A stretch of 12,229 bases of DNA from a virus (Duplodnaviria > Heunggongvirae > Uroviricota > Caudoviricetes). The position numbers were made by a program, and so were the translations under genes. Every line of letters starts with the position of its first letter. Position 1 is the first letter of the stretch. Below the pieces are notes generated by a model that saw only the letters and a program-made list of their open reading frames with translations, was not told the origin of the DNA and did no database searches. Shown here in pieces: positions 9,760 to 9,795 of the stretch. The stretch is taken from the IMG/VR virus record IMGVR_UViG_2609459834_000004. The stretch is one strand, 5' to 3'.

Positions 9760-9795
9760 CTCAAAAAATGGAAAAACCCGCTCGACGGCGGGTTT
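9760..9795 (-). terminator. Rho-independent terminator on the minus strand, upstream of S
   Basis: Stem AAACCCGC / GCGGGTTT (plus 9774-9781 and 9788-9795, 6-nt loop). Read on the minus strand it is followed by TTTTTCCATTTTTT. On the plus strand it is preceded by A's, so it is directional. Confidence 0.5.

Follow-up and report, generated by a model that had tools for sequence, protein, structure and literature searches.

Gene organization around the hairpin

The window, i.e. the whole 12,229-nt stretch of DNA that was analysed (IMG/VR record IMGVR_UViG_2609459834_000004), is, judged by its sequence, a DLP12-like E. coli prophage. Positions 9630-10300 are 99% identical to DLP12 of strain K-12, the promoter-hairpin segment discussed below being identical; the K-12 coordinate is obtained as 587048 minus the window coordinate. 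The interval 9400-10300 is matched in 4583 of 5426 complete E. coli genomes, at a median of two places per genome, and is annotated there as essD, rrrD and porin. In the best-matching genome, the genes follow one another in the order quuD, opposite-strand porin, essD, rrrD, rzpD, HNH endonuclease, terminase and portal. The late genes essD, rrrD (lysozyme), rzpD, HNH, terminase and portal all lie on the minus strand, downstream of a hairpin at 9774-9795 (Table 1). An earlier note on this DNA had named a holin and a porin as the flanking genes, and both identities hold: the holin by its Pfam match, the porin by its annotation on the plus strand. QuuD shares 78% identity with the Q protein of phage 933W over residues 1-125, both being members of PF06530, which Yin et al. 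named the "Q21/Q933W family", and it has a distant match to the Q21 chains of structures 6JNX and 6P18.

The region is a mosaic. In a blastn comparison, 933W matches the window in two blocks, one covering Q codons 1-111 (11895-11561) and one running from pR' to the hairpin (9854-9772). The gap between the two blocks measures 88 nt in 933W and 1706 nt in the window, which places the porin cassette between Q and its promoter and not between terminator and S. A contiguous Q-pR' cassette is hence not what is found here: the locus departs from the textbook arrangement in that Q and promoter are 1.7 kb apart, with an oppositely oriented porin cassette between them. Since the same split occurs in 82 of 113 related loci (see below), it is a common variant of the cassette. 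On the other side of the hairpin, the ~120-nt leader (9771-9652) is unmatched: the 933W homology stops at 9772, and the homology to phage 21 begins at 9651, from where its lysis cassette is 94% identical at the DNA level to window positions 9651-8606.

Several further features surround these genes. The first part of the window (1-4990) is non-homologous to the otherwise near-identical prophage of strain VG888-46E9, the homology (98.8%) beginning at 4991; from the alignment, this position marks a mosaic junction inside the terminase/portal region. At the other end, 12068-12229 holds the terminal part of an IS1 element with 100% identity to IS1B of the VG888-46E9 prophage; the element lies within ylcG, ~175 nt upstream of the quuD start, and its insertion has probably cut Q off from the early rightward operon of the window's prophage. 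The porin gene is followed by a structured 3' UTR of ~140 nt (11321-11480, plus strand) that ends in a strong terminator, GGGGCGTCTCAACGCCCC followed by ATTTTT, at 11459-11476. We take the position of this 3' UTR to be that of the IpeX regulatory RNA, downstream of nmpC/lc. Just beyond the porin stop codon, on the Q strand, a long bulged hairpin (11333-11365, minus strand; ATATGTTGGGGAGGCAACGCCTCCCGCAACATAT, then CTTTTTC) is a candidate terminator for transcripts leaving quuD; the bulge in this hairpin kept the scans from calling it.

Table 1. Coordinates of the features in the window, and related loci carrying cargo between Q and pR'
Feature	Position	Strand	Description
quuD	11510..11893	minus	Q antiterminator of the Q21/Q933W family; PF06530, 3.5e-53; annotated quuD
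Cargo between Q and pR'	9855..11560	plus	AT-rich porin promoter region, porin (~10224-11320), 3' UTR, terminator 11459-11476
Sigma-E-like promoter	10174..10206	minus	GAACTA (10206-10201), N16, TCACT (10184-10180), predicted start ~10174
Inferred late promoter pR'	9826..9853	minus	-35 TTTACG (9853-9848), 16-nt spacer, -10 TATGCT (9831-9826)
Palindrome, candidate Q-binding element	9840..9853	minus	14 bp, TTTACGTACGTAAA; overlaps -35 and spacer, then A run
Inferred transcription start (~9819) and conserved initial transcribed region	9803..9819	minus	AGTGGTTACTTCGTCAC; folds into small 5' hairpin
Terminator hairpin (tR' homologue)	9774..9795	minus	AAACCCGC / loop CGTCGA / GCGGGTTT; +25..+46 of inferred pR' transcript
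U-rich tract 3' of stem	9763..9773	minus	TTCCATTTTTT; TTTTTCCATTTTTT when the three paired T are included
Leader, terminator to essD start codon	9651..9762	minus	Without homology to 933W or phage 21
essD	9435..9650	minus	S21-type holin, 71 aa; PF04971 "Bacteriophage P21 holin S", 2e-35; first late gene past the terminator
Strict terminator-like sites in the window	11459-11476; 9774-9795; 1644-1683	plus; minus; minus	
Loci with cargo-filled gap			L008, L019, L020, L022, L033, L034, L046, L052, L061, L065, L086, L100, L102, L105, L106, L111, L112, L121, L122 and others

The hairpin and the predicted late promoter

On the minus strand, 9795-9774 reads AAACCCGCCGTCGAGCGGGTTT with the tail TTCCATTTTT; in the consensus scan, this is a stem of 8 pairs (5 G-C) around a 6-nt loop. 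A ViennaRNA fold reproduces the same hairpin, which alone amounts to -11.5 kcal/mol. Stem and U tract both fall within 9760-9795, where the earlier note had seen a clear intrinsic terminator for minus-strand transcripts, and its estimate of ~120 nt to S agrees with the 124 nt measured from the stem end to the essD ATG at 9650. The hairpin is also directional, as had been proposed, since the stem read on the plus strand is followed by TTTAAGCTGTG with only three T; neither scan calls the plus strand, and the U-rich tract on both strands that would make a bidirectional intrinsic terminator is absent.

Sites of this kind are more numerous in the window than expected by chance. With thresholds set strictly (7 or more perfect pairs, 5 or more G-C, and 5 or more T within the next 8 nt), three sites are found in the whole 12.2 kb on both strands, where 0.36 ± 0.59 are expected, with a maximum of 2, from 100 dinucleotide shuffles. 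The looser consensus scan discriminates less (19 sites vs 11.9 ± 3.6 in shuffles). The window's strongest terminator-like hairpin, with 17 pairs, is the site at 1644-1683 in the head-gene region, between the ORFs 1721-2950 and 1319-1687; it would also need read-through by Q-modified polymerase. For the hairpin upstream of essD, the fold z-score is an unremarkable -0.43 over the whole 91-nt stretch and -2.0 for the 57-nt inferred transcript. The U tract behind the stem is interrupted (UUUUUCCAU), and RNA 3' ends are predicted within 9763-9773, which would give an RNA of ~47-57 nt. A search of the whole window against Rfam at E<=1 gave no match, existing records annotate nothing at the hairpin position, and the Term-seq supplements of Adams 2021 list neither essD nor any coordinate near 5772xx. 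A protein-coding reading of the hairpin region was rejected: only ORFs of 25-38 aa overlap it, none of them conserved across module variants.

A sensitive blastn search of 9860-9640 against phage records returned full-length matches only to DLP12-like sequences; phage genomes with a close match to 9640-9860 are Kati (100%) and PhiR68_2, 3W and ev099 (91-92%). By blastn, the shorter segment 9854-9772 is 77-78% identical to a segment in ~280 Stx phage records. This segment is annotated there as the 3' end of Q, a promoter described as homologous to pR' and a terminator described as homologous to tR'; promoter and terminator come right after Q in 933W, SC370 and Ss-VASD. The homologous hairpin is listed as a putative tR' or rho-independent terminator in 933W (Y10775.2) and SC370 (AF548457.1). 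Window and Stx phages have the -35 TTTACG in common; their stem cores (CCCGC/GCGGG) are identical, their loops are not, and a T run follows.

This homology allows the promoter and start site of the window to be predicted. In the alignment, TTTACG-N16-TATGCT is the counterpart of TTTACG-N16-TATCAT in Sakai Sp5/933W, a promoter with a mapped start: in the Sakai Stx phages, Sy et al. located the start of pR' by dRNA-seq, placed the 3' end of its transcript at a distance of 258 nt by Term-seq, and reported RNase E cleavage at +173 within GUAUU, between GU and AUU (PMC7547250). Reconstructed from the sole GUAUU and the last U of the second terminator, the Sakai +1 is an A, 7 nt after TATCAT. It aligns with window position 9819; the hairpin thereby occupies +25..+46, with the U tract reaching +57. 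The predicted pR' has 8 of 12 consensus matches, under the threshold of the consensus scan, and its -10 is one match poorer than that of the Stx phages. The earlier note had offered as an alternative that the hairpin might be the true tR' if pR' lay within the AT-rich stretch 9800-10150. It is this alternative that the comparison favours, with a promoter homologous to the Stx pR' at the very edge of that stretch.

The initial transcribed region is nearly invariant between the window and the Stx phages (AAGAGTGGTTAC...), and its form AGTGGTTAC(T/A)T is highly conserved across the module loci, although the search pattern forced part of this conservation. It probably holds a candidate sigma-dependent pause element. 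The best -10-like hexamer in it is TACTTC in the window, without the final T, vs TACATT in 933W, and a clear -10-like pause element was not found in the window's initial transcribed region. The palindrome upstream occupies the position of the annotated Q-binding element (QBE) of phage 21, as a palindrome rather than a direct repeat. It takes several forms across loci (TTTACGTACGTAAA, ACGATCGT, GCGGTCCGC, GCGTACGC, TTCGTTACGAA, TGGAATTCCA and TTGTTATAACAA), and over 113 loci its sequence varies with the Q clade, including loci with Q distant from the promoter. This pattern of sequence variation suggests that a promoter remains matched to its own Q across such distances.

The pR' module occurs once in the window, in front of essD. 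A second copy beside quuD was sought and rejected: the interval 11510-11330 is made up of the porin 3' UTR and terminators and holds no copy of the module. Late transcription therefore probably proceeds without crossing the porin gene, and the pR' read-through that the earlier note had also considered would presuppose a pR' beside Q, which these comparisons do not bear out.

A second promoter faces the lysis genes from further upstream. The sole published promoter of essD, essDp, is of the sigma-E type (PMC7918800). The primers in the supplement of that work, together with its stated extent of "-121 to +650", map to window positions 10295..~9526, and the sequence GAACTA-N16-TCACT, inside the porin 5' region and directed toward the lysis genes, ends 6 nt before the +1 that this fragment implies. 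The DLP12 lysis operon is also under the control of a phage Q-type antiterminator, according to published work summarised in PMC7918800. The essDp start lies ~355 nt upstream of the predicted pR' start, which puts the hairpin at ~+380 of its transcript; attenuation of the sigma-E transcript from ~10174 by the hairpin is thus a plausible side effect. The -35 region of the essD promoter is reportedly necessary for the Q effect, a result ascribed to Rueggeberg (2015).

Related loci and the gap between Q and its promoter

A search with the initial-transcribed-region pattern fetched 120 IMG/VR loci, comprising 73 unique 170-nt modules and 54 unique leaders. A same-strand Q of the Q21/Q933W family (PF06530) lies upstream in 113 of the 114 loci with enough upstream DNA. 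It is adjacent (20-60 nt) in 31 loci; in the other 82 it is 632-2467 nt away, with other genes between. When 23 representative leader variants were folded singly, up to the first T run, the small 5' hairpin appeared in all 23, and a GC hairpin with a U run at +25..+60 appeared in nearly all. The stems of diverged modules (CCUCGC/GCGGGG, CCCUGCC/GGCGGGG and GGCCUCG/CGGGGCU) are located 6-14 nt further downstream; for one diverged module, L071, no hairpin is predicted, but folding ended before the stem was reached. When 24 leader variants were aligned with MAFFT, RNAalifold found the 5' hairpin alone and no formal covariation in the terminator stem, because variation in loop length makes MAFFT misalign the terminator arms.

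Some natural variants damage the stem. In 15 DLP12-like loci, GCGGG in the 3' arm is changed to GCTGG, which weakens the predicted leader fold from -13.9 to -8.4 kcal/mol with loss of the terminator stem; the stem is weakened as well in two single-locus variants (GCGGA and CCCACC). Downstream of the hairpin, at least four unrelated sequences start directly after the T run, and the terminator is therefore the right-hand edge of a mosaic module.

The left-hand side of this module is more varied. The gap between Q and pR' is filled by ~20 different cargos of 0.63-2.5 kb with a G+C content of 0.31-0.45; of 22 representative gaps, 20 have their longest ORF on the opposite strand. Besides the window's porin, the cargo includes Kiwa (KwaB, 2e-126, with a TM partner) and the KAP NTPase of PDC-S20 (1e-177). 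As a pattern, it is well supported that the Q-pR' junction of Q933W-type lambdoid phages looks like a recurrent hotspot for the insertion of accessory and defence genes. The promoter-to-hairpin module may then be its invariant right border, and the clade-specific palindrome may match the promoter to a distant Q. We did not find this hotspot described in the literature searched, of which coverage was incomplete, and it may already be published.

The hairpin as probable terminator of the late operon

Taken together, we consider it likely, with a probability of about 0.8, that the prophage has a Q-dependent late operon whose intrinsic terminator close to the promoter (tR') is the hairpin at 9774-9795. 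Three parts of such an operon are present in the window: a PF06530 Q upstream on the same strand, an intrinsic terminator shortly past the predicted start, and the late genes, with holin, endolysin and spanin among them, downstream on the same strand. Observed directly are the hairpin, its homology to the Stx pR' module with the mapped start, the family of Q and the joint presence of Q and module; promoter activity, termination and Q-dependent read-through at the window's own copy are what we infer. Against this reading stand the interrupted U tract, the weaker -10, the want of a clear pause element, the sigma-E promoter of essD further upstream, the at least partial read-through of the homologous hairpin in the Sakai Stx phages, and the natural variants with a broken or weakened stem.

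In the proposed mechanism, sigma-70 pR' would fire constitutively, with transcription from ~9819. Without Q, polymerase would stop at the hairpin and free a leader of ~47-57 nt, 110-124 nt short of essD; this RNA would consist of the small 5' hairpin, the GC hairpin and the U tract, and the holin gene would stay untranscribed. When QuuD is available, it would load onto polymerase paused just past the promoter and narrow the RNA exit channel, blocking formation of the hairpin, in the manner of the exit-channel "nozzle" that was shown structurally for Q21 (Yin et al. 2019). The polymerase thus modified would then continue into essD-rrrD-rzpD and the head genes.

The logic of this arrangement is familiar from lambda, where a constitutive late promoter, pR', yields in the lysogen a short terminated leader, the 6S RNA ending at tR', and where Q-lambda brings about read-through into S-R-Rz. 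The window would share with lambda the late promoter, the short leader and the Q-dependent read-through into lysis genes, but the lambda Q belongs to an unrelated family (PF03589), its tR' lies at +194 vs ~+50, and there is no sequence similarity. A closer relative in design is phage 21 (Guo, Kainz & Roberts 1991; Yin et al. 2019; OL657228), whose Q is of the same family, PF06530, and serves as its structural prototype. The record OL657228 annotates, for its pR', the -35, a QBE (ATTGAGCA/AATGAGCA) in the spacer, the -10, the start, a sigma-dependent pause element (SDPE) at +2..+8 and a terminator at +3..+50, and the predicted fold of the late transcript is a hairpin with U7 behind it (-20.2 kcal/mol, z = -4.3). 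A terminator ~50 nt into the transcript is thus the normal design of this Q family, and the window layout, with its predicted start at ~9819 and hairpin at +25..+46, matches it. Phage 21 and the window have in common a terminator hairpin with a U run ending ~46-50 nt into the transcript and a nearly identical S21-R21-Rz lysis cassette downstream; the sigma-70 promoter of phage 21 and the factor-binding element within its spacer have a predicted and a candidate counterpart, respectively, in the window. The window's element is homologous to elements annotated in 933W (1999) and characterised in phage 21, although the promoter/terminator module of phage 21 has no DNA homology to that of the window. 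The QBE of Q21 is a direct repeat, whereas the conserved element of the window is a palindrome; moreover, the phage 21 Q abuts pR' and two tRNA genes follow the terminator, while in the window the 1.7-kb porin cassette splits Q and pR'.

The Stx phages (933W, H-19B and Sakai Sp5/Sp15) are the closest relatives in sequence: they are 77-78% identical between the -35 and the hairpin end, and have a Q that is 78% identical and an experimentally mapped start site. They differ in that Q overlaps the -35 and the U tract is uninterrupted (U7). They also possess a second terminator at +258, absent from the window, which sets the Term-seq 3' end and yields StxS. In the Sakai phages, a ~50-nt product of pR' was not reported, the 3' end being at the second terminator (PMC7547250). 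Since this end lies at +258, the first hairpin is read through at least partly in vivo; a 50-nt product might be a minor species or have escaped detection. The 200-nt extension of the Stx phages, the tRNA genes and stx are all missing from the window, where the hairpin is the sole terminator before the holin.

How do other explanations fare? It would be possible for the module to be correctly identified and yet inoperative, as a relic in a defective prophage whose promoter is too weak or whose Q is not expressed. The IS1 element 175 nt upstream of quuD, the -10 that is weaker than in the Stx phages, the stem-breaking GCTGG change in 15 DLP12-like loci and the cryptic nature of DLP12 in K-12 would all be in keeping with decay. 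However, the stem of the window is intact, K-12 and phage Kati carry an identical module, conservation of the sequence is good over thousands of genomes, and the Q-dependent control of the DLP12 lysis operon mentioned above has been reported; we regard an inert module as unlikely.

The earlier note had preferred a different role, in which the hairpin insulates the lysis genes from stray transcription. Put generally, it would mainly halt minus-strand transcripts before they reach the holin, independent of the adjacent late promoter, be they antisense starts, transcripts from the sigma-E essD promoter at ~10174 or read-through from the Q operon. Its position suits such a role: all possible upstream starts lie before it, and essD is only 124 nt away. 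The region between nmpC and essD, with its many promoter-like sites, has been listed as a "promoter island", and a sigma-E-like promoter does lie at ~10174. But hairpin, pR' and initial transcribed region travel as one module, both in the 31 loci with Q directly upstream and in the 82 with ~20 cargos, and the hairpin is present in 933W, 1720a-02 and other phages that have neither porin nor AT-rich region; its position is fixed to the mapped start site and not to the cargo. The blocking of upstream transcripts, including those antisense to the porin, is thus a plausible side effect, not the defining role of the element, and insulation as its main purpose seems to us quite improbable.

A role of the ~50-nt RNA (from 9819 to the U tract) in trans, possibly bound by Hfq and with the hairpin as its terminator and Hfq handle, is very unlikely: while the leader is shaped as two hairpins with a U tail, the locus is present in 4583 of 5426 complete E. 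coli genomes at a median of two places, and the same promoter module in Stx phages gives a pR'-tR' transcript from which the Hfq-binding sRNA StxS arises (PMC7547250), functional StxS is the 3' 74-nt RNase E product of the 258-nt RNA, which ends at the +258 terminator and carries the RpoS/stx1 seed (PMC7547250), the window lacks this +53..+258 segment and hence an StxS counterpart, its Stx homology ending at the first hairpin (9772), Rfam has no match, and no sRNA is needed to account for the strict linkage with Q and late genes. HnrS, a 66-nt multicopy prophage sRNA (PMC13502914), was rejected as the identity of the leader, as its size differs and the paper ties it to neither Q nor a late promoter.

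Returning to the terminator of a Q-dependent late operon, one may speculate that in DLP12-like prophages the hairpin also gates the sigma-E transcript, such that envelope stress reaches the lysis genes only when Q is present, and, more speculatively, that the ~50-nt leader is itself a trans-acting sRNA. The joint claim of an insertion hotspot between Q and pR' and of a hairpin that gates the sigma-E transcript with the leader as an sRNA we hold to be unlikely.

The hairpin element itself is textbook biology, and Q-dependent control of lysis in DLP12 has already been published; of more interest is a by-product of the analysis, the oppositely oriented cargo that separates Q from its promoter. 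What changes is the transcription map of DLP12-type prophages, in which the predicted late promoter and its terminator are located directly before the holin and not beside Q. In a very common type of E. coli prophage, late transcription need not run antisense through the porin gene. The DLP12 lysis cassette has been linked to biofilm and outer-membrane-vesicle phenotypes, and a single, moderately strong hairpin appears to separate this cassette from a predicted constitutive promoter. The GCTGG variant might raise basal transcription of the lysis genes in the prophages that carry it, and natural stem-breaking variants could explain differences between strains in basal lysis-gene expression.
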